A program made the position numbers and the translations under genes. DNA of 64,000 nt, from the NCBI GenBank assembly GCA_016195325.1, contig JACPZX010000019.1:8628-72627 (forward strand). The letters run 5' to 3'. Positions 23,508 to 56,948 of this stretch are shown one piece after another; within the stretch, counting starts at the first letter, position 1, and every line of letters starts with the position of its first letter. The stretch comes from Acidobacteriota bacterium (GTDB taxonomy: Bacteria; Acidobacteriota; Polarisedimenticolia; JACPZX01). The notes under the pieces were generated by a model that was not told the origin of the DNA, did not search any database, and worked only from the letters and a program-made list of their open reading frames with translations.

Positions 23508-23665
23508 AGTTCCTGCTTCCGCGCTTGTTCAGGCGGGAGGGTTTGCTTACCGTGCTCGGGATTCTTTCGACTCTTCCTTCGGGAGTTGGCCGTGGTGGCA
23601 CCAGTGAGCGCGTTCGCCTCGAATCTCGCTTTCCCGTATCTCCGATTTCATCCAGAGCGCCTGAC

Positions 23666-24193: not shown

Positions 24194-24254
24194 GACACCA
24201 CGTGGGTCGAAACAGGTCGCAGCGCAGGCTGGCCAGCCTCGCCGGAGGAACGCG

Positions 24255-24283
24255 TTGACTTGTAGCCCCGAAGGGGCTACCAT
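24255..24283 (+). promoter_or_regulatory. sigma-70-type promoter with an embedded palindromic operator for the toxin-antitoxin pair
   Basis: TTGACT (24255-60), 17 nt spacer, TACCAT (24278-83). The GTG start at 24290 lies 7 nt after the -10 element, which suggests a leaderless mRNA. The spacer contains the perfect palindrome GTAGCCCC-GAA-GGGGCTAC (24262-24280). Confidence 0.55.
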
Positions 24284-24289
24284 CCCACC

Positions 24290-24571
24290 GTGATCAGGCG
24301 CGCTGTCATCGCGGAGCGGGCACGTCGGCAGCTTCGACGGGCTCCCGGACACATTGTAGAAAAGCTCATGGCGTGGATCGAAGCCGTCGAGGAGGATGGG
24401 TTGGAAGCGACCCGACGGGTGCGCGGCTTCCACGATGAAGCCCTCAAGGGGAAACGCCGAGGCCAAAGGTCCATACGACTCAGCCGCCAGTGGCGCGCGA
24501 TCTATGACATTCGCAAGGACGGCGGCGCTCAACTCGTGTCAGTTGAAGAGGTGACACCCCATGTCTACTGA
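24290..24571 (+). CDS. type II toxin, RelE/ParE (HigB-like) family
   Basis: 93 aa. GFHDEALKGKRRGQRSIRLSRQWRAIYDI..VSVEEVTPHVY is typical of the RelE-fold toxin C-terminus. It overlaps the downstream XRE gene by 11 nt. Confidence 0.75.
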   Translation: MIRRAVIAERARRQLRRAPGHIVEKLMAWIEAVEEDGLEATRRVRGFHDEALKGKRRGQRSIRLSRQWRAIYDIRKDGGAQLVSVEEVTPHVY

Positions 24572-24899
24572 GAGAGGCACTCCGCGCCGTAAGCGCGGCA
24601 AGTCGGACGCGATGACCTTCCTCGAGAAGTTGAGTGGTGGCCCGCTCACGCTTGCCGCGCTCCTTCGGTCCATCCGGCAAGGTGAGGCCAAGACGCAGGC
24701 GGAGTTTGCCGAAACGCTGGGAATCTCGAAGCAGCATCTTTCTCACATCGAGAACGGACGAAAGGTCGTCAGTCCAGAACGGGCCGCCCGATGGGCTTCG
24801 CTTCTGGGCTATGCAGAGTCTCAGTTTGTACGGCTTGCGCTGCAGGATGAACTTCACCGAGCTGGGCTTCGATACACTGTGACCGTTGGCGCGGCGTGA
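24561..24899 (+). CDS. XRE-family HTH antitoxin (HigA-like)
   Basis: HTH segment TQAEFAETLGISKQHLSHIENGRKVVSPERAARWASLLG. Confidence 0.8.
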   Translation: MSTERGTPRRKRGKSDAMTFLEKLSGGPLTLAALLRSIRQGEAKTQAEFAETLGISKQHLSHIENGRKVVSPERAARWASLLGYAESQFVRLALQDELHRAGLRYTVTVGAA

Positions 24900-24955
24900 C
24901 GCCGACGCCGGCAGGAGATCGCGCGGGTCAACCGGGTCTTCAAGGTATCGAGTCC

Positions 24956-25153
24956 ATGATCGACCTGCTGAGCGGCACTCCCGTCTTCTCCGGAACCAGG
25001 GTGCCTGTCCAAACGCTTCTCGACTACCTCGAAGCGGGTGATCGCCTCGACGATTTCCTCGAAGATTTCCCAACGGTGATTCGCGAGAAGGCGGTGGCCG
25101 CTCGCGACCTCGCTCGGGAGGCGCTGACCCAGCATGCGAGTCCTCCTCAATGA
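24956..25153 (+). CDS. DUF433-family protein (antitoxin-like)
   Basis: From ATG 24956. SGTPVFSGTRVPVQTLLDYLEAGDRLDDFLEDFPTV is the DUF433 signature. A GTG at 24896 (GTGA overlap with the antitoxin stop) is an alternative start. Confidence 0.7.
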   Translation: MIDLLSGTPVFSGTRVPVQTLLDYLEAGDRLDDFLEDFPTVIREKAVAARDLAREALTQHASPPQ

Positions 25154-25277
25154 GTGCCTTCCCAGTCGCCTGAAGCGGGAACTCGTCGAGCTGTGGCACA
25201 TCCCCCGGCAGGACTCATTCCCTCCGCCGCCGCGGAAAATGCTCGCGCGTCGTCGACAACGCGGGGTGGTAGGCTGA
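25134..25277 (+). pseudogene. remnant of a DUF5615 (PIN-like, Mut7-C-type) toxin gene
   Basis: 47-codon ORF not in the track. MRVLLNECLPSRLKRELV matches the conserved N-terminus of the PIN-like partners of DUF433. The rest (ELWHIPRQDSFPPPPRKMLARRRQRGVVG) is unrelated and ends early. Confidence 0.35.
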
Positions 25278-25283
25278 TGCGCG

Positions 25284-25787
25284 ATGGCGCACGAGAGGGC
25301 TGGTGACGTGCAGGAAGAAGATCGACTCGTAGAGAAGCTCCGAAAGATCGAGGCTCTTTTTGCCAGACCCTCGACGGACGGCGAACGCATCGCCGCCGGC
25401 AACGCGCTCGAACGGATTCGCGCCCGCCTCCGTCAGCTCGAGGCGTCGGAGCCTCCCGTCGAGTACCGGTTCTCACTGTCCGACATCTGGTCGCAGTCGC
25501 TCTTCGTCGCGCTTCTTCGCCGGTATGGTCTCAAGCCCTACCGTTATCCGGGGCAGCGAAGGACGACTCTGATGGCACGGGTGACCCGGAGCTTCGTGAA
25601 CGACACGCTCTGGCCCGAGTTCCAGCAGTTGAACGAGACGCTCCGCGAACATCTTGCCGAGGTCACGCAGCGGATCATCGCGCAGGCAATCTGTCCGGAT
25701 GTCTCCGAGGCCGAAGTTCGGGCCGAACCGGCGGGCATGGAGGGCAAGGCGTCGGCGCCCGTGCAATCCGCGTTCGAATCCATGTGA
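25284..25787 (+). CDS. hypothetical protein (167 aa), N-terminus DUF2786-like
   Basis: ORF as given. LVEKLRKIEALFARPSTDGERIAAGNALERIRARL resembles the DUF2786 helix pair. The remainder was not recognised. Confidence 0.5.
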   Translation: MAHERAGDVQEEDRLVEKLRKIEALFARPSTDGERIAAGNALERIRARLRQLEASEPPVEYRFSLSDIWSQSLFVALLRRYGLKPYRYPGQRRTTLMARVTRSFVNDTLWPEFQQLNETLREHLAEVTQRIIAQAICPDVSEAEVRAEPAGMEGKASAPVQSAFESM

Positions 25788-25894
25788 GAGGGTGGGGACC
25801 CGGATCTCGCCTCGAGTTCTCGCCATCATGAAACAGCACTGGTTCGAGACCCCTGTGACGACACCCATGGTTCGACCGAGGGAATGAGGCGCAG

Positions 25895-26917
25895 ATGACC
25901 AGCTCCGGCTCGCGCCCCGGCGGCGAGGTCGTCGTCTATCAGGCCCCGGACGGCGAGGTTCGGGTCGACGTCAGGCTGGATCGGGATACCGTCTGGCTCT
26001 CCCTCAACCAGATGGCGGACCTGTTCGACCGCGACAAGTCGGTGATCTCACGGCACTTGCGAAACGTCTTCGGGTCTCGGGAACTGGAGCGAACGGCAAC
26101 TGTTGCAAGAAATGCAACAGTTCAGCGCGAGGCCGGCCGTGAGGTTGTTCGAGAGATCGACTACTTCAACCTCGACGCCATCCTCTCGGTCGGCTACCGC
26201 GTCAACTCGAAGCGAGGCACCCAGTTCCGCATCTGGGCCACGCGCACTCTTCGGGAGCACCTCGTCCGGGGCTACACGCTGAACCAGCGACGGCTGGCCG
26301 AGCGCGGCCTGGGCGACATCGAGCAGGCCGTCGCGCTGATGGCGAGGACGCTCAAGACCCACGCCCTGGTGACCGAGGAAGGGCGAGCCGTCCTCGACGT
26401 GGTCCGCCAGTACACGCGGGCCTGGCGCCTGCTTCTCGAGTTCGACGAGGAGCGGCTAGCCGAAGGGCCGGCGCGGCCCCTCCCGCCCCGAGTGCCGATC
26501 GCCCTCGACGAGGTCCGAGCTGCCGTCGCCGCGCTGCGCGACGAGCTCTTGAAACGAAAGGAAGCCGGAACGCTCTTCGGCCAGGAAATGGGCGAAGGAC
26601 TGGCCCGGATCGTCGGCGCGATCGAGCAGAGCTTCGACGGCGCCCCGCTCTACCCGAGCGCGCAGACCCGGGCCGCGCACATCCTTTACTTCGTGATCAA
26701 GGATCATCCCTTCGGCGACGGCAACAAGCGCATCGGCAGCCTGTTGTTCCTGGATTACCTGAGGCGCCACGAAATCTTATTGCGGCGCGACGGAACCCTC
26801 CGCCTGGCCGACAACGCCATGGTTGCGCTGGCGCTCCTGATCGCGGAGAGCGAACCACGTCAGAAGGAACTCATGACCCGCCTCGTCCTGAACCTGCTCG
26901 GAGACGAGGTGTCGTGA
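25895..26917 (+). CDS. RhuM-family / Fic-DOC fusion protein
   Basis: The N-terminal half has VWLSLNQMADLFDRDKSVISRHL..ILSVGYRVNSKRGTQFRIWATRTL (RhuM). The C-terminal half carries the Fic/Doc motif HPFGDGNKRIGSLL. Confidence 0.85.
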   Translation: MTSSGSRPGGEVVVYQAPDGEVRVDVRLDRDTVWLSLNQMADLFDRDKSVISRHLRNVFGSRELERTATVARNATVQREAGREVVREIDYFNLDAILSVGYRVNSKRGTQFRIWATRTLREHLVRGYTLNQRRLAERGLGDIEQAVALMARTLKTHALVTEEGRAVLDVVRQYTRAWRLLLEFDEERLAEGPARPLPPRVPIALDEVRAAVAALRDELLKRKEAGTLFGQEMGEGLARIVGAIEQSFDGAPLYPSAQTRAAHILYFVIKDHPFGDGNKRIGSLLFLDYLRRHEILLRRDGTLRLADNAMVALALLIAESEPRQKELMTRLVLNLLGDEVS

Positions 26918-26960
26918 GCGCCAGAAGGTGCCCGCACGAGATCGTCGACCCTTCTCCCCC

Positions 26961-26989
26961 TTGACACCCCATCTCCCCCGTCGTGTGAT
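26961..26989 (+). promoter_or_regulatory. candidate promoter TTGACA-17-TGTGAT upstream of the oxidoreductase gene
   Basis: Perfect -35 at 26961-66 and a weak -10 at 26984-89, 27 nt before TTG 27016 (RBS GGGAGG at 27001). Confidence 0.3.
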
Positions 26990-27015
26990 CTCCCCATCAC
27001 GGGAGGCGCACCACG

Positions 27016-27930
27016 TTGCGTTACGAAGTCATCGTCGTCGGAGGGAGCTTCGCGGGGCTGTCCGCCGCCATGCAGCTCGCGCGGGCGCGGAGGCGCGTCC
27101 TGGTCCTCGACGCAGGATCGCCGCGCAACCGGTTCGCGAGGCTGGCCTACGGCATCTTCGGACACGACGGGCTCGCCCCCGCGGTCATCCTGGCGAACGC
27201 GCGGACGCAGCTCCTCAACTACAGCACCGCGACGATGGCCGACGACCCGGCAACCCATGCGGCCGGGGCCCGCGGGGAATTCGCCGTCACGACGGCCGGC
27301 GGCGCCGCGCACACCGCCTCGCGTCTGGTTCTCGCCACCGGCGTGAGCGACGATCTCTCGACGATCCCGGGGATGGAGACGCGCTGGGGTGTCAGCGTGC
27401 TCCACTGCTTCTACTGCCACGGGTATGAGGTGGCGGAGAGGCGGCTCGGCGTGCTGGCGACCAACGAGCGGGCCCTGCAGACGGCGATGCTCCTCCCGGA
27501 CTGGAGCGACCACGTGACTCTCTTCACCCACGGCGCGCTCGCGCTGAGCGGAGAGCAGATGGACGGGCTCCGCGCGCGCGGCGTCGCCGTCGAGGCGTCG
27601 CCGGTGGTCGCCCTGCTCGGCGACGCGCCCGCGCTCACCGGGCTCCGGCTGGCGGACGGCCGCGTCGCGCCGCTCGACGCCCTCTTCACCAGCCCGCATG
27701 TTCGCATGGCCAGCCCGCTCGCCGAGCAGCTCGGCTGCGAGTTCGAGCAAGGTCCGTCCGGCCCTTTCATCCGCACCGGCGCCGACAAGCAGACCACCGT
27801 GCCGGGCGTCTACGCCGCGGGAGACGCCGCCCGTCCGGGACACAACGCCTCGTGGGCCGCCGCGGACGGCGTGACGGCGGGAATCTCCGCCCACCAGTCG
27901 CTCACTCTCGCCCGGGCCGCGTGCCGCTGA
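27016..27930 (+). CDS. NAD(P)/FAD-dependent oxidoreductase (thioredoxin-reductase-like)
   Basis: TTG start with GGGAGG upstream. YEVIVVGGSFAGLSAAMQLARA dinucleotide motif. A second Rossmann motif around RLGVLA. GVYAAGDAA C-terminal FAD motif. Confidence 0.8.
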   Translation: MRYEVIVVGGSFAGLSAAMQLARARRRVLVLDAGSPRNRFARLAYGIFGHDGLAPAVILANARTQLLNYSTATMADDPATHAAGARGEFAVTTAGGAAHTASRLVLATGVSDDLSTIPGMETRWGVSVLHCFYCHGYEVAERRLGVLATNERALQTAMLLPDWSDHVTLFTHGALALSGEQMDGLRARGVAVEASPVVALLGDAPALTGLRLADGRVAPLDALFTSPHVRMASPLAEQLGCEFEQGPSGPFIRTGADKQTTVPGVYAAGDAARPGHNASWAAADGVTAGISAHQSLTLARAACR

Positions 27931-28000
27931 GGTCCGACCCACACCACGCGCCTGTGTCCACTCGCCTGGTAAAGGCAGGTTATCCGGATATACTTCCCTC

Positions 28001-29170
28001 ATGGGCAAGATTATCCGACGCCTCCTCGAGCTCCCCGACACGGCCAGGCACTCCGTGTTCCTCTGGGGTCCCCGGCGCGCCGGGAAGTCGTGGTGGATCC
28101 GGGAGAACCTCCCCGAGGCTCCGCGGATCGACCTCCTCCAGACCGACGTCTACACCGAGTATGCGAGCCGCCCCTCCCTCCTTCGGGAGAGGTACGCCGC
28201 GAGACTTTCGGGACCGCGCCGCCCCATCGTGATCGACGAAGTCCAGAAGCTCCCCATCCTCCTGGACGAAGTCCACTGGCTGATCGAGAACGCGAAGCGG
28301 ACCTTCGTCCTCACCGGGTCGAGCGCGCGGAAGCTCCGGCGCGGCCACGCGAACCTCCTCGCCGGCCGCGCGCGGCGCCGCGAGATGCCCCCCCTCTGCT
28401 TCCCCGAAGTGGATCGCTACGATCCCGAGCGGCTCGCCGTGAGCGGCCTCCTCCCCCCGCACTACCTTTCGGATGATCCCCTCGACGACATCCGCTCCTA
28501 CGTCAACGACTACCTGAAGGAGGAGATCGTCGCCGAGGGGGTGGCCGTCAGCCTCCCCGCCTTCAGCGATTTCCTCCGGGTCGCCGCCATCACGAGCAGC
28601 GAGCTGCTGAACTACACGAACGTCGCCCGCGAGGTCGGCGTCTCGGCGAAGATCGTCCGCGGCTACTTCGATCTCCTCGAGGACACGCTCCTGGGGTTCC
28701 GCGTCGCCCCGTGGACGAAGAGTCGCAACCGGCGGCTCATCCTCACGCCGAAGTTCTACCTCTTCGACGCCGGAGTCGCGAACTTCCTGGCCCGCCGCCG
28801 TCCCGAGCCCGGCACCCCGGAGTTCGGCAAGACGATCGAGCACCTCGTCCTGATGGAGCTGATGGCCTGGCGGGCCTACCGCGACCCCGACATGGAGATC
28901 CGGTACTGGCGCGCCAGCACCGGACAGGAGATCGACTTCCTCGTGAACGACCGCGAGGTGGCGATCGACGTCAAGGCCTCCGCCCGAGTGCCGGACCACG
29001 CGCTGCGATCGCTCGGCGTGCTCGCCGAGGACGGTCCCGTGCGCCGCCGGATCGTGGTCTGCCTCGAGCGCCAGCCCCGCGTCGTCGCGGACCGCCGCGG
29101 TGAGATCGCGGTCCTCCCCCTCGCCGTCTTTCTGGAGAGACTCTGGGGCGGGACGATCGTGGCGGGTTGA
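28001..29170 (+). CDS. AAA-family ATPase with DUF4143 C-terminal domain
   Basis: Walker A is LWGPRRAGKSWW and Walker B is PIVIDEVQKLP. The downstream VAPWTKS..KFYLFDAGV pattern is typical of DUF4143 ATPases. There is a paralog at 52912. Confidence 0.8.
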   Translation: MGKIIRRLLELPDTARHSVFLWGPRRAGKSWWIRENLPEAPRIDLLQTDVYTEYASRPSLLRERYAARLSGPRRPIVIDEVQKLPILLDEVHWLIENAKRTFVLTGSSARKLRRGHANLLAGRARRREMPPLCFPEVDRYDPERLAVSGLLPPHYLSDDPLDDIRSYVNDYLKEEIVAEGVAVSLPAFSDFLRVAAITSSELLNYTNVAREVGVSAKIVRGYFDLLEDTLLGFRVAPWTKSRNRRLILTPKFYLFDAGVANFLARRRPEPGTPEFGKTIEHLVLMELMAWRAYRDPDMEIRYWRASTGQEIDFLVNDREVAIDVKASARVPDHALRSLGVLAEDGPVRRRIVVCLERQPRVVADRRGEIAVLPLAVFLERLWGGTIVAG

Positions 29171-29344
29171 CGTGCGGAGGAGCTTGACGCCCCGCGGCTC
29201 GTCCCGATTCCGGGACCCCCCGGTGTCACGCCCGAACACACCACCCCCCGCGTCGAGACTCCCGACCGAACCATTAATCCTTCCCGTCCAGCGAGATGGC
29301 TCCAGGCGACAAGCTCTGGCTCGAAGCATGCACTCCCCCCCGAC

Positions 29345-31780
29345 ATGCTGATCGAACGACTCGCCGCCATCCTCGACGACCTCCGGCTCGCCATCCGGTC
29401 GCTCGCCCGCACCCCTGGCTTCGTCCTCATCGCCGTCCTGACGCTGGGGCTCGGCATCGGCGCGAACACCGCGGCGTTCAGCGTTCTCAACGAGATTTTC
29501 TTCCGCCCACTCCCCTACGCCGACACCGGACGGCTCGACCGCATCTATCGCGTCACACCCGAGAACACCCGCGGCGGCATCTCCCCGGCCGATTACCTCG
29601 AGCTGAAGACCGAGACGAAGCGCTACGGAGAGATCGCCGCCTACGCCTTCTCGAACATGAGCCTCGCAGCCCCCGGAGAGCCCGCCGACATGGCCCAGGG
29701 CCTTCGCATCTCGGCCGAGTTCCTCACCACGCTTCAGGTGAAAGCCCGGCTCGGCCGCGACTTCCGCCCCGAAGAGGTCGCGGGCAACCACCACGTCGTC
29801 CTCATCAGCCATCGCTCCTGGCAGAACCGGTTCGCGGGAGACGCCGGCATCATCGGCCGCATCGTCCGCGTGGACGCGGAGCCCTGCGAGATCGTCGGCG
29901 TGCTCCCCGAATCGGTCGAGGACTGGCGCCATCTGGGGGCGATCGACCTGTACCGACCGCTTGCCTTCACCGAGAGCGACAAGACCGACCGCAACGCCAC
30001 ATGGATCCGTCTCGTCGGGCGACGCACCGGCACCCGCACGGACGCCGAAGGGTTCATCGCGGCCTTCGGCCGCCGCCTGGCGACGGAGTACCCCGCCGCC
30101 AATGCCGGGAGCACCTGGCGCACCCTCCCGATCAACGTCGCGGTGGCCCCGGACAAAGGCCCGGCGATCTTCGGGATGCTGATAGGCCTTTCGGTCTTCG
30201 TGCTGCTCATCGCCTGCTCGAATCTCGCGAACCTCCTGCTCGCGCGGACGATGGCGCGGGCTCGCGAGTTCGCGGTGCGATCCGCCCTCGGCGCCTCGCG
30301 CGCGAGGCTGCTGCGCCCGCTCTTCGCCGAGTCGCTGCTCCTGGCCCTCGCGGGCGGGGTCCTCGCCCTTCTCGTCACGATGTGGACCAACGACTGGATG
30401 TCGAGGATGGGCCAGGCGACCTTCAGCGGCGCGTTCCTGGTCGTCATCGACTGGCACGTGCTGGCGTGGACGTTTGGCGCGTGTCTGTTCACGGCCGTCG
30501 CCTTCGGCGTCGCCCCCGCGCTCTTCGCCATGAGGCTCGATCCGAACACGACGCTCAAGAGCGGAGGGCGCGGCGCCACCGGCGATCGCGGCCATCAGCG
30601 CTTCCGCAGCCTCCTCATCGTGGGCCAGTTCGCCCTCGCGATGGTCCTGCTCGCGGGGGCCGCCCTCTTCATGCGCGGCGTCCAGGAGGCGAACGACCGC
30701 CGCTTTGGCTGGGAATCCGACCGTCTCGTCAGCGGCACCACGCTCCTTCCGACGGCGACGTACAAGGGCGCCACGGAGATCACGGAGTTCCAGCGCCTCG
30801 CCCTGCAGCGTCTCGAGGCGCTGCCCGGCGTCTCGTCCGCCAGCATCTCCTACGTGATGCCCTTCCTCGGCCTGGCCGAGGCGCGGAAGTACCTCGTGGC
30901 CGGACGCGTGACGCCCGAGCCCGGCCGTGAGCCCGTCGCCGCCATCAACGGCGTCAGCCCGCACTACTTCGAGACCGTCGGCACGCGCGTGATCGAGGGG
31001 CGCGCCTTCGACGGGCGCGACCTCCTCGGTTCCCCGAAGGTCTTCCTGATCAACGAGGCGATGGCCCGGGGCCTCTTCCCCGGCGAGAGCCCGCTCGGCA
31101 AGCGCATCGCGCGGGCCGGCGTGAAGACGATCGAGTGGGGGGAGATCGTCGGCGTCGTCGGCAACGTCCAGTCGGTCATCCCGGATCAGGCCGCCATCGC
31201 CTTCCAGCTCTACCAGCCGATGGCCCAGGAGCCGCGCCCCGGCGGCGAGATCGCGGTTCGCACCGCAGGCGTCGCGCCTTCCGCGCTCGTCCCGAGCATC
31301 CGCACCACGATGGCGTCGCTCGACGCCGACCTGCCGATCCGCGATCTCCAGCCCGCCACGACGGCGATCGCGAAGGCGACCTACTCGTGGCAGGTCCTCG
31401 GCAGCATGCTCTCGTTCCTCGCCGTGGTCGGGCTCGCCCTGGCCTCCCTCGGCATGTACGGCGTCATCGCCCGCACGATGGCCCAGCGCACCAGCGAGTT
31501 CGGCATCCGCCTCGCGCTGGGAGCCCTCGCCTCGGACATCACCCGACTGGTTCTCGGCGCGGGGGCGAGGCTGGCGCTCGCCGGCTCATCGCTCGGCCTC
31601 GTCGGCGCCTTCGGCATCTCGCGGCTGCTCGCGTCGCTCTTCCCCGGCCTCATGACGAGCAGCGTCCCCGTGCTGAGCGGCGTGACGTTGCTGCTCATGG
31701 CGATCGCCCTTCTCGCCTGCTACATGCCCGCGCGGAACGCCTCGAGAATCAACCCCATCGAGACGCTTCGAGCGGAGTAG
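29345..31780 (+). CDS. ADOP-family duplicated FtsX/MacB-like ABC transporter permease
   Basis: 811 aa. DLRLAIRSLARTPGFVLIAVLTLGLGIGANTAAFSV N-terminus. Two MacB-PCD plus FtsX modules. IRLALGA and the C-terminal INPIETLRAE. Confidence 0.85.
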   Translation: MLIERLAAILDDLRLAIRSLARTPGFVLIAVLTLGLGIGANTAAFSVLNEIFFRPLPYADTGRLDRIYRVTPENTRGGISPADYLELKTETKRYGEIAAYAFSNMSLAAPGEPADMAQGLRISAEFLTTLQVKARLGRDFRPEEVAGNHHVVLISHRSWQNRFAGDAGIIGRIVRVDAEPCEIVGVLPESVEDWRHLGAIDLYRPLAFTESDKTDRNATWIRLVGRRTGTRTDAEGFIAAFGRRLATEYPAANAGSTWRTLPINVAVAPDKGPAIFGMLIGLSVFVLLIACSNLANLLLARTMARAREFAVRSALGASRARLLRPLFAESLLLALAGGVLALLVTMWTNDWMSRMGQATFSGAFLVVIDWHVLAWTFGACLFTAVAFGVAPALFAMRLDPNTTLKSGGRGATGDRGHQRFRSLLIVGQFALAMVLLAGAALFMRGVQEANDRRFGWESDRLVSGTTLLPTATYKGATEITEFQRLALQRLEALPGVSSASISYVMPFLGLAEARKYLVAGRVTPEPGREPVAAINGVSPHYFETVGTRVIEGRAFDGRDLLGSPKVFLINEAMARGLFPGESPLGKRIARAGVKTIEWGEIVGVVGNVQSVIPDQAAIAFQLYQPMAQEPRPGGEIAVRTAGVAPSALVPSIRTTMASLDADLPIRDLQPATTAIAKATYSWQVLGSMLSFLAVVGLALASLGMYGVIARTMAQRTSEFGIRLALGALASDITRLVLGAGARLALAGSSLGLVGAFGISRLLASLFPGLMTSSVPVLSGVTLLLMAIALLACYMPARNASRINPIETLRAE

Positions 31781-31835
31781 AATCGCCCCGGCGCACGTCG
31801 TGCTGCGGAATGAGGCGTGACGCGAGGAGGGGCGG

Positions 31836-32567
31836 ATGAGCGACCCGACATGCGATTGTTTTCTCGCGCCGGACAAGAAGTGGCGTGAGGTCGAGTTTCA
31901 CGCCGAGCTCCAGGACACTCAATGCGACGCCTGGAGACGCCTGGAAGGAATGATCGAGGAGGCGGCGCTCGACGGGCGGGCGGAGTTTGCGCCGATGCAG
32001 AAGATGACCGGGGAGGACGTGGAGCGAATCATCACCCTTCCACGATCCATCCGGAAGCTTCGATCCGTCAAACACCTCGTGCTGTATGACACCTTCCTCG
32101 TCCGGGTTCCGAGAGAGATCGGGGAGATGTCGAGCCTCGAGAAGTTCACCCCGTACACCTCGTGGCGCCTTCACTGGCTCCCGTACGAGATCACCCGTTG
32201 CCGGAACCTCGTCGACAGCACGGTCAGCACGCGCTGTCTCTACGGCAACTTCAAGTACAGGCCGCCATTCCCCGCGCTTCCGGTGTCCACCGAGCGACGG
32301 GCCGCGATCACCGACCGGAACCTCCGCATGGGCTCGGAGACGACCGTCGCCTGCAGCGTGTGCGACGGACCGTGCACGGGACCCGTCCGGCAGGCGTGGA
32401 TCTCTCTGCTCGTCGCGACGGATGTGCTGCCTCTGCTCGTGAACGCGTGCTCCCGGCGGTGCCTCGACGCCCTCCCCGCACCCCCGCCTTACTACCTGCA
32501 GCGCCCCCACAGGGGAGGGTTGGGTCTCGAACAACCCGTACCGGAACAAGTGGGCCGAACCCTTTGA
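31836..32567 (+). CDS. hypothetical Cys-rich protein with leucine-rich-repeat-like segment
   Basis: LPRSIRKLRSVKHLVLYDTFLVRVPREIGEMSSLEKF fits LxxLxLxx-L--PxxIGxLxxL. CDC at the N-terminus and a CSVCDGPC..CSRRC cluster at the C-terminus. GC is lower than in the surroundings. Confidence 0.5.
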   Translation: MSDPTCDCFLAPDKKWREVEFHAELQDTQCDAWRRLEGMIEEAALDGRAEFAPMQKMTGEDVERIITLPRSIRKLRSVKHLVLYDTFLVRVPREIGEMSSLEKFTPYTSWRLHWLPYEITRCRNLVDSTVSTRCLYGNFKYRPPFPALPVSTERRAAITDRNLRMGSETTVACSVCDGPCTGPVRQAWISLLVATDVLPLLVNACSRRCLDALPAPPPYYLQRPHRGGLGLEQPVPEQVGRTL

Positions 32568-33316
32568 GTGGCGGCATCGTCCGTCACGAGCTGCCCGGGT
32601 CGGTGTCACGGCTCGTCGTGCTGGGCGACCCTCACGGCGCGCTCGAGGCCACCCGGGCCGTTCTCGAGAAGGAGATGGACGGTCGAACGCTGGCCGGCTG
32701 TGTCGGAGACGTCGTGGGATACGCCGACGGGCCTTCGAGCTCCGCGCTGGCCGAGTTCCTCCGGGACCAACAGGTCCCGACCGTCGAGGGGAACCACGAG
32801 GCATGGGTTGGACCCGATGGATCACTCTCCATCGTGGAGGGTCGCGTCTCCAGCCGGCAGCTCACTCCTGCGACGCTCGAGTGGATTCGGTCCCTTCCAT
32901 CGACGATCGAGTTCGGACGCGCGGCGCAGACCGCCCCCCTCGCCGTCATGGTGCACTCCATTCGTGAGCCTCGCTGGGATTGGATCGACGCCTCCAACGC
33001 GGGCGGCCTGGTCGACCGGCTCGGGCGCCCTCGGGTCGTCGTGAGCGGCCACAGCCATCGCCCGAGGTTCATCGTCGTGACCGCGGGAGGCGGCTCGCGC
33101 GTCGAGCCATTCGATTTCGAGGCCGACGCGGAGATCTCGATCGACCTGCCCGCGGTCGGATCCGTCCTCGTCGATTCCGGAAGCCTGGGCCGTGCCGAGC
33201 GGGATCCGGCCATCCCTGGCGGCCGCAGGACGACCGGTCGGGCTCGGTACGGCACCTACGCGATCGTCGATTTCGAGCGACAGGTCGCGATCCTCCGTCG
33301 CCACGGTCACGGGTAG
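32564..33316 (+). CDS. metallophosphoesterase (calcineurin-like, YfcE/MJ0936-type)
   Basis: 3' part of ORF 32162..33316. LVVLGDPHG, VGDVVGYA, EGNHE, VMVHS and VVVSGHSHRP are the metallophosphatase motifs. The likely start is TTG 32564, overlapping the upstream stop (TTGA). Confidence 0.7.
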   Translation: MSGGIVRHELPGSVSRLVVLGDPHGALEATRAVLEKEMDGRTLAGCVGDVVGYADGPSSSALAEFLRDQQVPTVEGNHEAWVGPDGSLSIVEGRVSSRQLTPATLEWIRSLPSTIEFGRAAQTAPLAVMVHSIREPRWDWIDASNAGGLVDRLGRPRVVVSGHSHRPRFIVVTAGGGSRVEPFDFEADAEISIDLPAVGSVLVDSGSLGRAERDPAIPGGRRTTGRARYGTYAIVDFERQVAILRRHGHG

Positions 33317-33358
33317 ACGGCCGCGGACTGCAGGCCGGGCTTCCCGTCCGCACGTTTC

Positions 33359-33400
33359 CCAAACTAGAAAACAGCCGACGTCCAAACTAGCATTCAGCCG
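33359..33400 (+). promoter_or_regulatory. two 19-bp direct repeats CCAAACTAG-N5-CAGCCG (23-bp period)
   Basis: 33359-33377 is CCAAACTAGAAAACAGCCG and 33382-33400 is CCAAACTAGCATTCAGCCG. They form a locally AT-rich patch 70 nt upstream of GTG 33470. Function unknown. Confidence 0.4.
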
Positions 33401-33469
33401 TCGCAGCGCATCCTTCGAATTCCTCGACAGAGCACCCCTACCCCTGAGTTCAACGACGACGAGTTCGAC

Positions 33470-33652
33470 GTGACACGCGCCAAAGGGCTGAGGGAGAGGA
33501 TTCAGGCCTTCCGCGCGAAGTACTCGGGAATCATGTCGCGGCTCGAGGCGACGGCGACGGAGCCCTCGAGCGGAAAACCGATCCGGATGCTCGGCATGAA
33601 CACGAGCCGCTTCAGGGACGGAAAGATCGCGTCGCGTGGAGGGCGCGCGTGA
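33470..33652 (+). CDS. small hypothetical protein (60 aa)
   Basis: GTG start, high GC3 (about 85 percent by hand count). The stop overlaps the next start (GTGA). No family recognised. Confidence 0.3.
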   Translation: MTRAKGLRERIQAFRAKYSGIMSRLEATATEPSSGKPIRMLGMNTSRFRDGKIASRGGRA

Positions 33653-34212
33653 AGGTGGCGCTCGGGTTCAAGGCCCACTCGGGGTGGGCGGCCCTGGTCG
33701 TCGTCGGCCGCACGGGCGGCGACGTCGTGGTCGTCGATCGGCGGCGCGTCGAGCTCGTCGAAGAGGCGTGGGCGAAGCAGCCGTACCACGCGGCGGAGAA
33801 TCTCCCGGCGAAGGGGGCGCGGGAGACCGTGACTCGCGGCATCGAGGCGGCGCACCGGATCGCGCTCCGCGAGATGCGCGCGGCGGTGACGCGGGAGAGC
33901 GAGCGCGGCCACGTGGTCGCGGCCTGCGCCGTCGTCGCCGGCAACCCGATGCCCGGCTGGAGCGTCGAGGAGATCCTCGCGGTGCACTTCCGGATGCACA
34001 AGGCCGAGGGGGCGCTCTTCCGGGACGCCCTGGCCCGCGCCGCCGAGGGGTGCGGCCTGAAGCTGGCCGAGGTCCCGGAGAAACAACTCGTGGCTCACGC
34101 CGGGAAGGCGATCCCGAAGCCCGCCGGTCCGCCGTGGGGGAAGGACCAGAAGGACGCGGCGCTCGCGGCGCGGATCGCGCTCGAGGGGGCACGGTTGGCA
34201 ACGCCTGAATGA
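33649..34212 (+). CDS. hypothetical protein (187 aa)
   Basis: GTG start. KVALGFKAHSGWAALVVVGRTGGDVVVVD looks like the three-strand N-terminus of an RNase-H-like/ASKHA fold but lacks the usual Asp. The rest is helical. No family recognised. Confidence 0.5.
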   Translation: MKVALGFKAHSGWAALVVVGRTGGDVVVVDRRRVELVEEAWAKQPYHAAENLPAKGARETVTRGIEAAHRIALREMRAAVTRESERGHVVAACAVVAGNPMPGWSVEEILAVHFRMHKAEGALFRDALARAAEGCGLKLAEVPEKQLVAHAGKAIPKPAGPPWGKDQKDAALAARIALEGARLATPE

Positions 34213-34305
34213 AAACCCGGACGATTATCAGGAAGGCCCAGATCGCGAATCATGTGGTACGCTCGCCTGCGGCGACCGTGGAGAGGACCCCATTGCGGAG
34301 GTGAG

Positions 34306-34878
34306 ATGGCCAACCGGATGATGGGAACTGTCACCGCATGTTTGAGCGCCGCCGTCCTGGCGGCAGCCGCCGGCTACGTCTTTGGCGTGAAACAAACTGT
34401 CCAGCAATCCACGCCCTCCGTCGTGCCGAATGAGCTGAAGGTGCCGCCGTTGACCGGACCGACTGGGCCGACCGGGCCATCTTCGAACTGCTCCGGGCAG
34501 TCGCCTCACCCAGTCACCGGAATGGGGCTCCCGGGATTCAAACTCCAATTGGATGGAGTGTCGGCGCCAGACCCGTTCAAGCCCAGTTTCAACCCGGTGA
34601 AGCTCCAACTGCATCACGTACTCAATGTGGCGAACGAGAGCGGCACGACGGTGGCAGTCTCCAAGGTGGGACTCTGGGTGGGCGTCACCAACGGCTTCGT
34701 CGAAAGCGATAGCACAAATGCGGGTTGCGGTTATCCGATGCTCACTCAGCCCACGTGCTCGTCGGTGGCGAACGGCGGGAGCTGCGATATCGGTTTCACC
34801 GGGACCGGTGCACCGACGACGGGTTTCATCGAAGTCATCACGAGCTCGGGCGTGATCATCGTGGCGCTCCAGTTCTAG
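34306..34878 (+). CDS. membrane-anchored or secreted hypothetical protein
   Basis: From ATG 34306 (GGAGGTGAG upstream). TM anchor GTVTACLSAAVLAAAAGYVFGV, a GPTGPTGP linker, and a Cys-containing beta-rich C-terminal domain. Confidence 0.5.
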   Translation: MANRMMGTVTACLSAAVLAAAAGYVFGVKQTVQQSTPSVVPNELKVPPLTGPTGPTGPSSNCSGQSPHPVTGMGLPGFKLQLDGVSAPDPFKPSFNPVKLQLHHVLNVANESGTTVAVSKVGLWVGVTNGFVESDSTNAGCGYPMLTQPTCSSVANGGSCDIGFTGTGAPTTGFIEVITSSGVIIVALQF

Positions 34879-34966
34879 CGGAGTCGACGCGCTCCGCGCG
34901 CGGGCTCATGTCGCGAGCAGCCGGAGGTTGACACGCCCCCCCGCCCCGGCTCAGACTCGGCCCCAC

Positions 34967-36568
34967 ATGATCAAGCCCCTGCTCTCCCTCGCGCTCGTCG
35001 CCGCGCTCGCGTGGACGGCGGCCCCCGCGCAGCAGATCCCGAACGGCCCCGAGTTCCAGGTCAACGCCTACTCGAGCGGGGCGCAGTTCCGACCGTCCAT
35101 CGCCCGCGACGGCGCCGGGAACTTCGTCGTCGTGTGGGAGGACGATGCGCGGGACGGCTCCATGGAGGGGATCTTCGGCCGCCGATTCGCGAGCACCGGG
35201 GCGCCGATCTCGGGTGACTTCCAGATCAACACCTACACCACGGCCGTGCAGTACCACCCCGCGGTGGCGATGAGCCCGTCGGGAGAGTTCGTGGTCGTCT
35301 GGATGAGCTACGGGCAGGACGGCTCCAACATGGGGGTCTTCGGCCAGCGCTTCGACAGCGCGGGGAACGCGGTCGGCGGCGAGATGCAGATCAACACCTA
35401 CACGCCGTCGCTCCAGTCCAACCCGAAGGCGGCGATGGCCCCCGACGGATCGTTCGTCGTGGCGTGGGACAGCTTCGGGGAGGATGGATCGTACGCCGGC
35501 GTCTTCGGCCAGCGATTCAGCAGCTCGGGGCAGCCGGCGGGGAGCGAGTTCCAGATCAACACGACGACGATGTACGACCAGATCGTCCCCCGCGTCGCCG
35601 CGGACGCCCAGGGGAACTTCCTCGTCGTGTGGGTCAGCCACGACGTCTCCGGCTTCGACGTCATCGGGCGGCTGTACGACAGCGGCGGCGCGCCGATCAC
35701 GGGGGAGTTCCAGGTCAACGCCTATACGACGTACGGCCAGTTCTACCCCGGAGTGAGCATGGGGGCGTCCGGAAACTTCGTCGTCTCGTGGACGAGCAGC
35801 CTTCAGGATGCCGGAACCCCCGGCGTCTTCGCCCGGCGGTTCGACAGCTCCGGCACGCCCCTCACGGGGGAGTTCCAGGTCAACACCTACACCACCAGCC
35901 AGCAGACGGCGTCGGTCGTGGCGATGGACGGGTCGGGCGGGTTCGTCGTGTCGTGGATGAGCGAGGGGCAGGACCGCCAGAGCTTCGGCGTCTTCGGCCG
36001 CCGCTTCGACAGCTCGGGGGCTCCCCTCGGCGGCGAGTTCCAGGTCAACACGTACACGACCGGCTATCAGGGAATTCCCTCCGTCGTGATGGACGCGGCC
36101 GGGAACTTCACGGTGGCGTGGGTCGACCAGTTCCAGGACGGCGAGTCGTGGGGGGTCTTCGCCCGGCAGTTCTGCAACGACACCGACGGCGACGGCCTCT
36201 GCGACGCCGAGGACATCCTCGTCACGAGCCCGATTCAGGGGGCCGTCCTCGACTGCTCAAGCCCTCTCCTGACCCGCCCGACGATCACCTGGGACGCCGG
36301 GAACTACGACAGGTTCCGGGTCACCGTCGCGACCGACCCGTCGTTCGCCGCGGGGACCGGGGTGACGAGCGGCAGCGGCCTGCTGACGTCCACTTCATGG
36401 ACGCCGCCGGGTAAGAAATGGAAGAGCGCGTGCGGCAAGGCGCAGGCGGCGAACCCGTCGAGCCCCGTCCTCTTCGTGAGGGTCTTCGGCGTGGACCTCA
36501 ACGTCTCGAAGCGCGATCCGCACCGGAAGACGTTCAGCCAGGTCGTGCAGGCGGGTGTGACGCCGTAG
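34967..36568 (+). CDS. secreted protein with eight ~47-aa repeats (EFQVNTYTT...GNFVVVW...QDGS..GVFGQRFDS.G) plus a conserved C-terminal domain
   Basis: Signal peptide MIKPLLSLALVAALAWTAAPA. There are eight tandem repeats. The C-terminal ~130 aa are shared with the paralog at 45311. The start is uncertain (TTG 34928 is the alternative). Confidence 0.8.
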   Translation: MIKPLLSLALVAALAWTAAPAQQIPNGPEFQVNAYSSGAQFRPSIARDGAGNFVVVWEDDARDGSMEGIFGRRFASTGAPISGDFQINTYTTAVQYHPAVAMSPSGEFVVVWMSYGQDGSNMGVFGQRFDSAGNAVGGEMQINTYTPSLQSNPKAAMAPDGSFVVAWDSFGEDGSYAGVFGQRFSSSGQPAGSEFQINTTTMYDQIVPRVAADAQGNFLVVWVSHDVSGFDVIGRLYDSGGAPITGEFQVNAYTTYGQFYPGVSMGASGNFVVSWTSSLQDAGTPGVFARRFDSSGTPLTGEFQVNTYTTSQQTASVVAMDGSGGFVVSWMSEGQDRQSFGVFGRRFDSSGAPLGGEFQVNTYTTGYQGIPSVVMDAAGNFTVAWVDQFQDGESWGVFARQFCNDTDGDGLCDAEDILVTSPIQGAVLDCSSPLLTRPTITWDAGNYDRFRVTVATDPSFAAGTGVTSGSGLLTSTSWTPPGKKWKSACGKAQAANPSSPVLFVRVFGVDLNVSKRDPHRKTFSQVVQAGVTP

Positions 36569-38206: not shown

Positions 38207-38260
38207 GCCCCGTATCATCGAGACGAATGCCACCCGAGTCAAGGCACCCAACGAGCGGTT

Positions 38261-38438
38261 GGCGAGACTGTTTGCGGCGTGGGAGCGTCTGAGACGAACC
38301 CGGGTACCCGCGGAGGCGCCGGCGCCTCCTGTCATCGAACAAGACGGCGCCGCCGCAGCGGGTGGGTGAGCGAAGCCGAGGCCGAGCGCGATTACTTCAC
38401 GCGCGGAGGCCGGCTCCCACGACGCAAACAGTCTCGCC
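38261..38438 (+). repeat. structured intergenic element, copy A (family of three in this window)
   Basis: A 26-bp terminal stem (38261-38286 with 38413-38438, 1 mismatch), an internal palindrome GGAGGCGCCGGCGCCTCC, and conserved blocks CCCGGGTACCCG and CCGAGGCCGAGCGCGATTACTTCACGCGCGGAGGCCG shared with 56448..56610 and 56684..56870. Confidence 0.8.
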
Positions 38439-38501
38439 ACCCGCGCAACCGACCTCCGCCTTGACTTGCGATCGACCCCGCCCGCAAGATCGCGGGGACG
38501 C

Positions 38502-45182: not shown

Positions 45183-45257
45183 GGCGCTATCGTCTAGGGG
45201 TCAGGACGGATGGTTCTCAGCCATCAGACCGGGGTTCGAATCCCCGTAGCGCTACCA
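45183..45257 (+). tRNA. tRNA-Glu (anticodon CTC), CCA encoded
   Basis: Hand-folded cloverleaf. Acceptor GGCGCTA/TAGCGCT (G-U at 1:72), D-arm GTC..GAC with TAGGGGTCAG loop, anticodon stem GATGG/CCATC with loop TTCTCAG, T-arm CGGGG-TTCGAAT-CCCCG, discriminator A, then CCA. Confidence 0.9.
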
Positions 45258-45310
45258 TGACCCTGCCCGCCCCTCTCGTTCCGCTCCCCACCCGCACGGA
45301 GGTTGAATCG

Positions 45311-47002
45311 ATGTCACGATTCACCGTCGCCGCTCTCGTACTCGCCTCGGGCATCACGTTGATTTCGGCCCAGCCCGTCAAGAACGGGCCCGAGATCCAG
45401 GTCAACACCCACCAGCCCGGCTCCCAGCAGCGCGCCTCCGTCGGCCGGGATGGCCTCGGAAACTTCGTGGTCGCGTGGCAGAGCGAGGGGCAGGATGGCT
45501 CAGGATACGGCATCTTCGGCAGGAGGTTCGGCGCGTCGGGCACCGCCGCCGGCGGCGAGTTCCAGATCAACACCTACACGCCGAACGATCAGTACGCTCC
45601 GAAAATCGCGATGAACCCGTTCGGCGAGTTCGTCGTCGTGTGGTACAGCTACCGCCAGGACGGGTCCGGATACGGCGTCTTCGGCCAGCGCTTCACGAGC
45701 GCCGGGTCCGCTCAGGGGAGCGAGTTCAGGATCAACACCAGCACCCTGGGAGATCAGTTCGACCCATCGGTCGCCATCGGCGACTCCGGCGAGTTCGTGG
45801 TCGCGTGGACCAGCTACGCCCAGGATGGCTCGGCGGACGGAGTGTTCGGCCAGCGCTTCGACAGCGCGGGCGTGCCCCAGGGGACCGAGTTCCAGGTGAA
45901 CACGTACACGACCAGCGACCAGCGGAAGGCGGCCGTCAGCGTCGGCCCGCTGGGCGAGTTCACCGTCGCGTGGGAGAGCTTCGGGCAGGACGGATCCAAT
46001 CTCGGGGTCTTCGGCCAGAGGTTCGACAGCTCCGGCGCCCCGCAGGGGGCCGAGTTCGCGGTGAACACCTACACGACCAACCGGCAGCAGCTTCCTTCCA
46101 TCGGCACGGACTCCTCGGGCAACTTCGTGGTGGCATGGCAGAGCCGCAACCAGGATGGCTCGGGCGACGGCGTCCTCGCCCGGCGGTTCGACAGCACCGG
46201 CGCCGCGCTGGGGACCGAGTTCCAGGCGAACACGTTCACGACCGGCAATCAGAACTCCGCCTCCGTCGGCATCGACCCCTTCGGCGAGTTCACGGTGGCG
46301 TGGCAGAGCTACGGGCAAGATGGCGACGGCTTCGGAATCGTGGGACGGCACTTCAGCTCCAGCGGTGCGCCCGCGGGGGGCGAGTTCCTCGTGAACTCCT
46401 CCACCACCGGCTACCAGACGCAGCCCGAGGTGGCCATGGACCCGCAGGGGGACTTCGTCGTCGTGTGGCAGGACGATTTCCTGACCGGTTCGTTCGGCGT
46501 CTTCGCCCAGAGCTTCTCCGGCCCGCTCTCGTGCCCTCCCGGCGATGCCGATGGGGACGCCGTCTGCGACAGCGTCGACAATTGCCTCTCCCTCTACAAC
46601 CCCGGCCAGGACGACACCGACCACGACGGTGTCGGGGACGCCTGCGACGTCATGATCACCGCTCCTCCCGGCGGAACGACCCTCGACTGCAACACCCCCC
46701 TGACCGTCCGGCCGACGATCACCTGGGACGGCGGGATGTACGACACATTCAGAGTGTTCGTCAGCCCGGATCCGAACTTTCCCGCGAACAACCGCGTCTC
46801 GAGCGGCGCAGGCGCGCTGAAGACAACGAGCTACACGCCCCCGGGGAGGAAATGGAAGGGAGCCTGCGCGAGGGCGAAGAAGGCGAACCCCACGGACCCC
46901 GTTCTGTTCATCAAGCTCTTCGGACAGGACCTCCAGGCCACGGCCGCCAACCCCGACCGGCGCACCTTCAGTAATGTCGTCAAGGTCTTCGTCACACCCT
47001 GA
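45311..47002 (+). CDS. secreted protein with eight ~47-aa EFQVNTYTT-type repeats, a TSP3-like Asp-rich segment and a conserved C-terminal domain (paralog of 34967..36568)
   Basis: ATG 45311 with GGAGG 8 nt upstream. Signal peptide MSRFTVAALVLASGITLISA. DADGDAVCDSVDNCLSLYNPGQDDTDHDGVGDACD is a calcium-binding-type repeat. The C-terminus RPTITWDGGMYDTFRVFV..PPGRKWKGAC matches the paralog. Confidence 0.8.
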   Translation: MSRFTVAALVLASGITLISAQPVKNGPEIQVNTHQPGSQQRASVGRDGLGNFVVAWQSEGQDGSGYGIFGRRFGASGTAAGGEFQINTYTPNDQYAPKIAMNPFGEFVVVWYSYRQDGSGYGVFGQRFTSAGSAQGSEFRINTSTLGDQFDPSVAIGDSGEFVVAWTSYAQDGSADGVFGQRFDSAGVPQGTEFQVNTYTTSDQRKAAVSVGPLGEFTVAWESFGQDGSNLGVFGQRFDSSGAPQGAEFAVNTYTTNRQQLPSIGTDSSGNFVVAWQSRNQDGSGDGVLARRFDSTGAALGTEFQANTFTTGNQNSASVGIDPFGEFTVAWQSYGQDGDGFGIVGRHFSSSGAPAGGEFLVNSSTTGYQTQPEVAMDPQGDFVVVWQDDFLTGSFGVFAQSFSGPLSCPPGDADGDAVCDSVDNCLSLYNPGQDDTDHDGVGDACDVMITAPPGGTTLDCNTPLTVRPTITWDGGMYDTFRVFVSPDPNFPANNRVSSGAGALKTTSYTPPGRKWKGACARAKKANPTDPVLFIKLFGQDLQATAANPDRRTFSNVVKVFVTP

Positions 47003-54756: not shown

Positions 54757-54856
54757 GAGCTCTTCCTCCAACGGTGCGGGCAACGATGTGGGACGGATGG
54801 CAGAAGGCGCACGGCCCCCTGCGGAACAACACGCGCGGCTTCCCCGGTATTCCCGG

Positions 54857-56381: not shown

Positions 56382-56447
56382 AGGCGCGGGAGGATACTCC
56401 ACCGGCCGCCTTTCGCAAGCCTCCTCCCGCGGCCCCGGCGGCGGGCC

Positions 56448-56610
56448 TCATGGCGTCGGGGAAGACGGCCTCCGCGCGTGAAGTAATCGCGCTCGGCCTC
56501 GGCTTTGCTCGCCCACCCGTTCGGGCGGCGCCGGCGTTGTTTGATAGCAGGGGGCGCCAGCGCCCGATCGGGTACCCGGGCTCGTCCCAGACGCTTCCCC
56601 GACGCCATGA
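56448..56610 (-). repeat. structured intergenic element, copy B-left (reverse orientation)
   Basis: A 17-bp perfect terminal stem TCATGGCGTCGGGGAAG (56448-64) / CTTCCCCGACGCCATGA (56594-610). The reverse complement aligns block by block with copy A, including the identical 37-nt core. Confidence 0.8.
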
Positions 56611-56683
56611 TGCCCACCGCCGGTCACTCGATCGGCCCCGCTCGATGCGCCGCGTCAGCCGCATGGAACCCTGCCGCGCCGAC

Positions 56684-56870
56684 CGGCAGCGGCCGACATT
56701 GCGCTGGGGGAGCGTGCGGGACGAGCCCGGGTACCCGCGCAGGCGTCTGGAGCCTCCTGTTATCAAACATGCCGGCGACGCCGGAGTGGGTGGGCGAGCA
56801 AGCCCGAGGCCGAGCGCGATTACTTCACGCGCGGAGGCCGACTCCCCCGGCGCAATGTCGGCCGCTGCCG
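56684..56870 (+). repeat. structured intergenic element, copy B-right
   Basis: A 29-bp terminal stem 56684-56712 / 56842-56870 with a single T:G opposition. It has the same conserved blocks as copies A and B-left. Confidence 0.8.
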
Positions 56871-56948
56871 GGCGATCGATCGGCATCGTGCCGAGGATGT
56901 GCACCGAGGCGCTCGCGGACTGTAGAATCGCCCCCCGGAGGTGGCGGC

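Follow-up and report, generated by a model that had tools for sequence, protein, structure and literature searches.

REPINs are REP doublets which form hairpins and are mobilised by Y1 transposases known as RAYT or TnpA-REP. The attC sites carry conserved R''/R' core sites at their ends around a variable centre, and are found in cassette arrays with an adjoining integrase gene. REPINs are about 80-110 nt long, and the REPs are small palindromes with a GTAG or CGTC tag (PMC3733652). The excision of REPINs is asymmetric, with about 6 bp of the right end staying behind and the hairpin being excised with a 5' tail (PMC3116915). In the Bacillus cereus group, bcr1 is a dispersed repeat of about 155 bp, in which compensatory changes keep up the double-stranded structure, and is regarded as a special class of mobile sequence (PMC3184786). 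MITEs, including Correia/NEMIS, Nezha, Chunjie and ERIC, are shorter than 300 bp, have terminal inverted repeats (TIRs), are predicted to form very stable hairpins, and are located in intergenic regions, with filled and empty sites among related genomes (PMC3184786). Most of what is known about REPINs, bcr1 and Correia elements comes from cultured Proteobacteria and Firmicutes, whereas the family presented here belongs to an uncultured soil lineage. It is a previously undescribed family of non-coding mobile repeats of ~190 bp in a high-GC genome background, in which the usual pattern is reversed, the interior being conserved while the ends vary yet stay paired.

The stretch analysed, hereafter the window, comprised 64,000 nt of an Acidobacteriota bacterium (Polarisedimenticolia; JACPZX01), namely positions 8,628-72,627 on the forward strand of contig JACPZX010000019.1 in assembly GCA_016195325.1. 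Three copies, designated A, B-left (Bl) and B-right (Br), were present at the places given in the initial annotation, as both sequence and alignment confirmed, and profile search revealed no further copies in the window (Table 1). The 37-nt core was identical in A, Bl and Br as reported, the blocks CCCGGGTACCCG and TGYYATCRAACA were common to the copies, and the 19-mer GCGCGATTACTTCACGCGC occurred exactly 3 times in the window against 0.1 expected. The similarity had been attributed to such blocks; the blocks were found as described, but the restriction to them was not, since an identity of about 82-86% among the three window copies spanned the entire interior, and one of about 82% their full length. 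The box CCGGGTACCCG, which includes the perfect 10-bp palindrome CGGGTACCCG, was a second invariant segment. Full copies were 186-195 nt long, apart from a 249-nt copy in contig L051 (sequences from relatives and metagenomes are referred to by L numbers) that contained a 63-nt insertion, and two subfamilies, type I and type II, were recognisable in the alignment.

Table 1. Positions of the repeat copies, their parts and the adjoining promoter-like sites, numbered from the first nucleotide of the window.
Feature	Position	Strand	Basis or remark
Copy A, whole element, 186 nt	38257..38442	+	nhmmer, 8-copy profile, E 6.6e-49; alignments
Copy B-left (Bl), whole element, 189 nt	56435..56623	-	nhmmer E 7.1e-52
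Copy B-right (Br), whole element, 189 nt	56683..56871	+	nhmmer E 3.8e-52
Copy A, 5' terminal inverted repeat	38257..38286	+	pairing detectable from 38255
Copy A, 3' terminal inverted repeat	38413..38442	+	pairing detectable to 38444
Bl arms	56594-56623 (5'), 56435-56464 (3')	-	inverted repeat, 30 nt, 93%
Br arms	56683-56712, 56842-56871	+	pairing detectable over 56680-56874
Copy A, invariant 37-nt core	38376..38412	+	GGCC/GCGCG stem, 9-nt loop ATTACTTCA
Bl core	56466-56502	-	identical 37 nt
Br core	56804-56840	+	identical 37 nt
Copy A, invariant box CCGGGTACCCG	38300..38310	+	invariant in 8/8 aligned copies
154-aa gene promoter-like site TTGACT, 17 nt, GATGAT	38214..38242	-	-35 lies 14 nt from copy A 5' arm
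Kinase promoter-like site TTGACT, 18 nt, CAAGAT	38461..38490	+	starts 18 nt after copy A 3' arm
ettA promoter-like site TTGCGA, 16 nt, TATCCT	56391..56418	-	-35 lies 16 nt after Bl 3' arm
Isomerase gene -10 box TAGAAT	56923..56928	+	downstream of Br; conserved in element-free L062

Each copy was closed by a long self-complementary stem, in agreement with the initial annotation. The RNAfold z values were -5.7 for A, -5.1 for Bl and -7.6 for Br, with 0 of 200 shuffles as stable in each case, and the fold energies of the window copies ranged from -97 to -128 kcal/mol (-107.6 for copy A). The stems were longer than first reported. By the inverted-repeat finder they reached 32 nt in A (94%), 30 nt in Bl (93%) and 33 nt in Br (94%), compared with the earlier 26, 17 and 29 bp respectively. 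The arms measured 27-33 nt in all full copies and were 93-100% complementary in 7 of the 8. The ends had been described as unrelated among copies, which was not borne out: they are diverged homologous 30-nt inverted repeats, with the rough consensus GGYGGYGGnCnnCATnGCGnCGnGGGAG. The identity between copies was 54-100% in the inner 13 nt of the arms and 65-88% in the outer 17 nt (29-53% for copy A vs the rest), and 77-98% in the interior. The arms are thus the fastest-evolving portion of a homologous element, with complementarity kept.

The structure predicted by RNAalifold consisted of the 30-bp stem, a continuing helix (columns 32-47 with 112-126) enclosing the 5' domain, and the core hairpin as the 3' branch, and a three-way junction was predicted for the conserved interior of ~130 nt. 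In the 8-copy alignment, 96% of cells were paired on the predicted structure, and changes on both sides were observed in 23 of 64 pairs, including 17/30 in the terminal stem and 5/10 in helix 2; these counts come from 8 sequences at about 6 loci, which served both to derive the structure and to test it. None of 500 shuffles reached the observed covariation values, and only 2-4 both-side-changed pairs were left when the partners were slid by 1-3 columns. Strong covariation in the terminal stem, together with one covarying interior helix, upheld the earlier proposal that pairing rather than end sequence is conserved. Helices 6 and 7, which belong to the core, were invariant in 8/8 copies. The local internal hairpin GGAGGCGCC/GGCGCCTCC of copy A, which had been thought to keep its pairing while changing in sequence, fared otherwise: it was paired in 68% across the family, no better than shuffles, while a competing long-range helix was 94% paired, and it was rejected as a family feature. 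On the sense strand, 12 G.U cells were counted vs 5 A.C cells, corresponding to roughly 8 vs 4 independent events, and the stems held four T.G wobbles vs one A.C. This excess of G.U over A.C is suggestive but does not reach significance, and in DNA hairpins, too, G.T is the least disruptive mismatch. A search for targets complementary to the 9-nt loop gave nothing convincing.

Both loci in the window were confirmed as divergent intergenic regions, in which the copies end 63, 66 and 78 nt before start codons, as had been noted from the sequence. The flanking genes encode a 154-aa hypothetical protein, a Ser/Thr kinase, EttA and an enoyl-CoA isomerase. Most promoters were assigned by eye, and that of the 154-aa gene was found by scan. 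The distance from the 3' arm to the -35-like hexamer was 12-18 nt in A, Bl and the copies of L051, L054 and L057, and 28 nt in Br. The -35/-10 boxes of the 154-aa gene were conserved in L063, L064, L067 and L068, the kinase promoter boxes were likewise present upstream of the orthologues in the element-free L066 and L067, and the ettA promoter-like site was conserved in the element-free L062. In the four tandem contexts, L051, L054, L057 and L058, a co-directional gene precedes the element, with 0-38 nt between its stop codon and the start of the element. The orientation of the element was that of the downstream gene in 6/6 informative loci (P about 0.016, assuming independent loci). Since the intergenic spacers of this lineage span just 40-80 bp, the restriction of surviving copies to the slot that separates the -35 box from the preceding gene or promoter may reflect a filter instead of targeting. 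The 3' "tail" CGACCTCC followed by TTGAC was considered as part of the element and discarded as a promoter feature, since it also precedes the -35 box in the element-free L067. A motif GA(T/C)CTCC(C) was observed just 5' of the -35 box at 38450-38466 of the window, 3100-3116 of L054, 1566-1583 of L057 and 255-272 of L067, and may be a lineage-specific upstream promoter element.

Further copies were obtained from metagenomes and related sequences. A metagenome scan with a degenerate core pattern yielded true copies in L051, L054 and L057, all adjoining unrelated genes, and in L058 a solo 3' core, which is truncated. The L051 copy is interrupted at the exact centre of the invariant palindrome, between CCC and GGGTACCCG, by its 63-nt insertion (1481-1543). 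This insertion has a 9-bp hairpin of its own, TTCGGCCGC/GCGGCCGAA, and is unlike everything else among the fetched sequences; its interpretation as an A-type arm fragment was dismissed, the local alignment score being no better than that against other copies. One close relative of the enoyl-CoA isomerase, with 87% amino acid identity, was detected on the JGI soil contigs L049 and L050, and the homologues of the kinase carried names such as Polarisedimenticolia, Thermoanaerobaculia and Acidobacteriota, at 35-49% identity, which makes an uncultured acidobacterial host probable. L063, a 78%-identical relative, has copy A and ends inside an arm, of which the inner 14 nt equal those of the window and the outer part differs. 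In practice, such repeats break metagenome assemblies, as exemplified by L063. Several other candidates were eliminated: the 48 loci from the 19-mer core scan of representative genomes were all chance matches of 20-28 nt, mostly in genes; 6 of the 11 metagenome-scan loci and one viral match were coding-sequence coincidences of the type ...ERD.FTR...; and an nhmmer match in L019 (E 5e-4) was coding sequence and not a copy. Similar DNA was found in no plasmid or phage record, and the viral collection contained nothing real.

Comparison between relatives showed that the element is mobile or unstable DNA, which is gained and lost between close relatives. In L049 and L050 the isomerase gene is identical over 765 nt, and a 188-nt indel removes Br, by which L049 has Bl and Br while L050 has Bl alone. 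In the more distant L062, L064 and L067 the element was absent; the ettA-isomerase spacer is 70 bp in L062, the spacer from the 154-aa gene to the kinase gene is 42 bp in L064 and 79 bp in L067, and these spacers hold only the same back-to-back promoters. The initial annotation had left the choice between a structured RNA and a mobile element. Mobility is now shown by presence or absence between near-identical strains, and the question has become one of ssDNA or RNA.

The indel between L049 and L050 is offset relative to Br: it takes in the 5 nt preceding the 5' arm, spares the last 6 nt of the 3' arm, and has GCCGC at each of its junctions. L050 retains 8-9 nt, CGCCGGTCG, which in L049 pair with the 5' end of the element. 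The window genome, though more distant, has Br at this site as well and with the same outer arms, so that the L050 state is most simply taken as a secondary deletion. This single case would be explained equally well by slippage between the 5-nt GCCGC direct repeats at the hairpin base and by an asymmetric enzymatic excision, as in REPINs. The complement left in L050 is then a remnant of an arm, which removes its support for the copying or targeting of flanking palindromes. That the element generates or targets palindromes had been suggested from the sequence, but the element-free orthologous sites contained no palindrome. Exchange between copies was also visible. The outer arms of Br in L049 match those of the window orthologue (88% and 94%), while its inner arms and interior match the copy of L057, from the same sample and another locus (92%/85% and 95%). 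The Br of L049 is thus a mosaic and copies exchange sequence, which is explained best by ectopic gene conversion with a homology-limited tract. Such conversion also accounts for a good part of the differences between the two orthologues of Br that look compensatory.

The divergence of Bl was compared with that of neighbouring sites. The L049 orthologue of Bl differed from the window copy at 10 of 189 sites (5.3%). Fourfold-degenerate sites differed at 26% in the gene for the isomerase and at 23.5% in ettA, and with a rate of 0.24 the binomial P for Bl was 4e-12. In the short spacers adjoining Bl, 14-38% of positions differed. A recombination tract behind this low divergence was rejected, because the 150 nt of ettA adjoining Bl differed at 6 of 25 fourfold sites (24%) and a 16-nt spacer contained 6 differences. 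At least 8 of the 10 changes preserve the predicted fold or leave it untouched. By type, the ten comprise a compensatory C-G to G-C pair in helix 2 (two changes), the replacement of a U.G wobble by U-A, a new T.G wobble within the stem, a substitution in the 9-nt loop, four changes at unpaired positions, and one that gives an A.G mismatch. Bl is therefore under purifying constraint in place, being about five times more conserved than neutral sites. Either the host makes use of this copy or something else keeps it intact, while a purely selfish, decaying insertion would not be expected to behave in this way. Br was overwritten in one strain and deleted in another, hence the copies are not equivalent. 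Between L049 (816-1004) and L050 (3-191), Bl has 2 differences despite the identical adjacent 765-nt gene; one changes the loop from ATGAC to ATGGC, and the other, CGGGTGGG to CGCGTGGG, breaks a predicted pair.

The searches for coding capacity, known RNA families and enzymes were negative. A small ORF through the element was discounted, as GC3 was 0.65-0.81 in every frame compared with about 0.9 in genes, indels between subfamilies shift the frame, copy A contains a stop, and the substitutions in Bl are not concentrated at third positions. At gathering score, Rfam returned only a tRNA for the window, and on the copies at E<=10 the best matches had E values of 1.5-5.7, far below the family cut-offs, in line with the earlier remark that the repeat could be matched to no Rfam family. 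Pfam scans of about 40 window ORFs revealed no transposase, integrase or RT domains, which likewise agreed with the report of no transposase or reverse transcriptase nearby. IS with ends like the arms were found neither in the window nor in the fetched contigs, and there were no solo palindromes of arm type in the window. No sense-direction promoter-like site was present upstream of the copies and no U-tract after the stem.

Among the described systems, REPINs share with the present family the non-coding nature, the intergenic location, the long hairpin as ssDNA or RNA and the common occurrence of compensatory changes, and neither has been described with target-site duplications (TSDs). The L049/L050 indel resembles REPIN excision in its offset of 5-6 nt, although it is a single case and GCCGC slippage explains it equally. 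Differently, in REPINs the arms, i.e., the REPs, are conserved and the spacer is variable, which is the reverse of the present family, in whose arms, the least conserved part, neither a GTAG/CGTC tag nor a sub-palindrome was found. bcr1 is likewise a structured mobile repeat with a non-conserved distribution and compensatory changes (PMC3184786), yet bcr1 has 5-bp direct repeats on its flanks and documented transcription, while the present family is without direct repeats; the host phylum is another and the sequence apparently unrelated. The likeness to classical MITEs lies in the TIRs, the small size, the absence of coding capacity, the intergenic location and the coexistence of filled and empty sites. 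However, classical MITEs have TSDs and conserved TIRs matching a parent IS; here no TSD was seen, no parent IS was seen in the window or the fetched loci, and divergence is greater in the arms than in the interior, opposite to what is typical of MITEs. Conserved terminal sequences together with TSDs had been named beforehand as the marks of an ordinary MITE; the ends proved to be related, whereas no TSDs were detected at the arm boundaries of 8 copies, including those with perfect arms of 30-31 bp.

The resemblance to other structured elements was smaller, and the earlier statement that no retron, attC or known RNA family fits held good, there being no adjacent RT or integrase, no core sites and no Rfam match. 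As in attC, it is the folded single-strand structure that is conserved and not the sequence. Nevertheless, the centre is the conserved part in the present family, the copies are solitary between housekeeping genes, the 3' ends lack GTTRRRY, and none of the window ORFs scanned encodes an integrase. The features of IS200/IS605 elements (PATE) were also absent: the 5' flanks of the copies share no motif that could serve as a fixed tetra- or pentanucleotide flank, and the 5'-proximal box CGGGTACCCG and the 3' core hairpin have unrelated sequences, instead of similar subterminal hairpins. A retron ncRNA was not indicated, with no adjacent RT and no RT domain among the window ORFs scanned.

Taken together, the family is best explained as a non-autonomous mobile palindromic repeat of ~190 bp, broadly MITE-like and closest in behaviour to REPINs and bcr1, a reading to which we assign a probability of about 0.55. 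The selected trait would be the fold of one strand, with G.T wobbles tolerated on the sense strand, and the selected form would most likely be ssDNA, used in mobilisation by a structure-recognising enzyme encoded elsewhere. The leading candidate for this enzyme would be an HUH/Y1 transposase of the RAYT or IS200/IS605 type. If only copies with an intact stem propagate, the arm sequence would be free to drift while pairing. Copies would survive only in a narrow permissive slot just upstream of promoters, and some may have been recruited there to bind proteins as DNA or to give upstream transcripts a structured 3' end. The ssDNA form is favoured by the lack of a sense promoter upstream of the window copies and of a U-tract, while a function as RNA is a serious alternative, above all where copies lie in 3' UTRs. 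Against this best reading, the roughly 40 window ORFs scanned include no mobilising enzyme, the arms are not REP-like, the copies number only about 8 independent ones, and the constraint on Bl is unexpected for a purely selfish element and points to a function at the level of the host. Should the enzyme partner be found, the family would provide a clean natural test of structure- versus sequence-dependent end recognition, and would show the co-option of an element beside promoters.

A structured RNA, acting as a cis 3'-UTR or leader element or as a small RNA, spread by duplication and selected for its RNA fold, is possible but on the whole unlikely. It would accommodate the covariation in the terminal stem and the interior helix 2, the 12 G.U cells against 5 A.C on the sense strand, the constraint on Bl in place with mostly structure-compatible changes, and the orientation shared with the flanking gene at 6/6 informative loci; moreover, the elements of L051, L054, L057 and L058, starting 0-38 nt after a co-directional stop, would be transcribed as 3' UTR. 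However, no copy has an upstream sense promoter-like site, a U-tract or an Rfam match, and the window copies lack an upstream co-directional gene and lie upstream of native promoters that are kept in element-free relatives, hence they are not in 5' UTRs. The presence/absence polymorphism, the mosaic and the truncated and interrupted copies are typical of mobile DNA. Homologous 30-bp terminal inverted repeats, a length under 200 bp, the non-coding, intergenic and strain-polymorphic character and the two subfamilies could also be reconciled with a cut-and-paste MITE derived from an IS with a DDE transposase, whose TIRs are subfamily-specific and whose TSDs have eroded. This origin is improbable, for TSDs are absent at 8 copies including perfect-arm copies that should be young, conservation is higher in the interior than at the ends, the window and the fetched contigs yielded no IS whose ends match, and three copies within 64 kb differ at 25-70% of outer arm positions, so that one sequence-specific transposase would struggle to recognise them all.

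That the outer stems are derived from the target, either by insertion into palindromes or by inverted copying of the flank, seems very improbable. The 8-9 nt CGCCGGTCG kept by L050 without the element, and the outer arms of Br common to the window and L049 despite interiors of different subfamilies, would be in its favour, but L050 is most simply a secondary deletion leaving part of an arm. The constant arm length of ~30 nt and total length of 186-195 nt, the lack of solo palindromes in the window and of palindromes at element-free orthologous sites, and the 65-76% identity of non-orthologous outer arms, by which these belong to the family, all speak against it. A further, rather doubtful interpretation is that the three-way-junction interior of ~130 nt is the functional module, perhaps a guide-, bridge- or recognition-type RNA or ssDNA for a recombinase encoded elsewhere, or else a regulatory platform at about -50 to -60 of promoters, which spread as a mobile unit and was then kept by the host, the variable stem merely closing the module. 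If true, it would explain the about fivefold conservation of Bl and the fact that the informative copies face the downstream promoter.

Several other features of the window were observed. The ettA gene (54716-56381, -) looks disrupted near 55424; its N-terminal frame is intact to ...EIYIPPGPR, after which some 55-60 residues, among them the Walker A motif of the second ABC domain, are lost and the remainder is in another frame. The gene may be a genuine pseudogene, or the assembly may have collapsed between the two ABC domains, which have a 125-nt internal repeat in common. At 10055-10213, about eight tandem 20-nt units of GCGGTCATCGCAGGGTCTCC are located at or just upstream of the start of a beta-ketoacyl synthase gene (8811-10082, -). 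Tandem repeats of 165 nt (55 residues) were present at 35049-36121 and 45391-46525, in the paralogous genes 34928-36568 and 45257-47002, for which there was no solid Pfam match. The region 5044-6811 (-) encodes an enzyme of the MbnB/TglH/ChrH family (E 5e-112) adjoining a DUF2063 protein, a typical RiPP-modification pair. Compared with the gene order of L064 (SNF2 helicase, FG-GAP, Fer4, 154-aa and kinase genes), the window has an extra block at ~23500-34900, with a stretch of lower GC content (0.63 at 22-26 kb) and a RhuM/Fic gene, which may be an inserted island. Two paralogous AAA_14/DUF4143 ATPase genes were also found, at 28001-29170 and 52912-54072.
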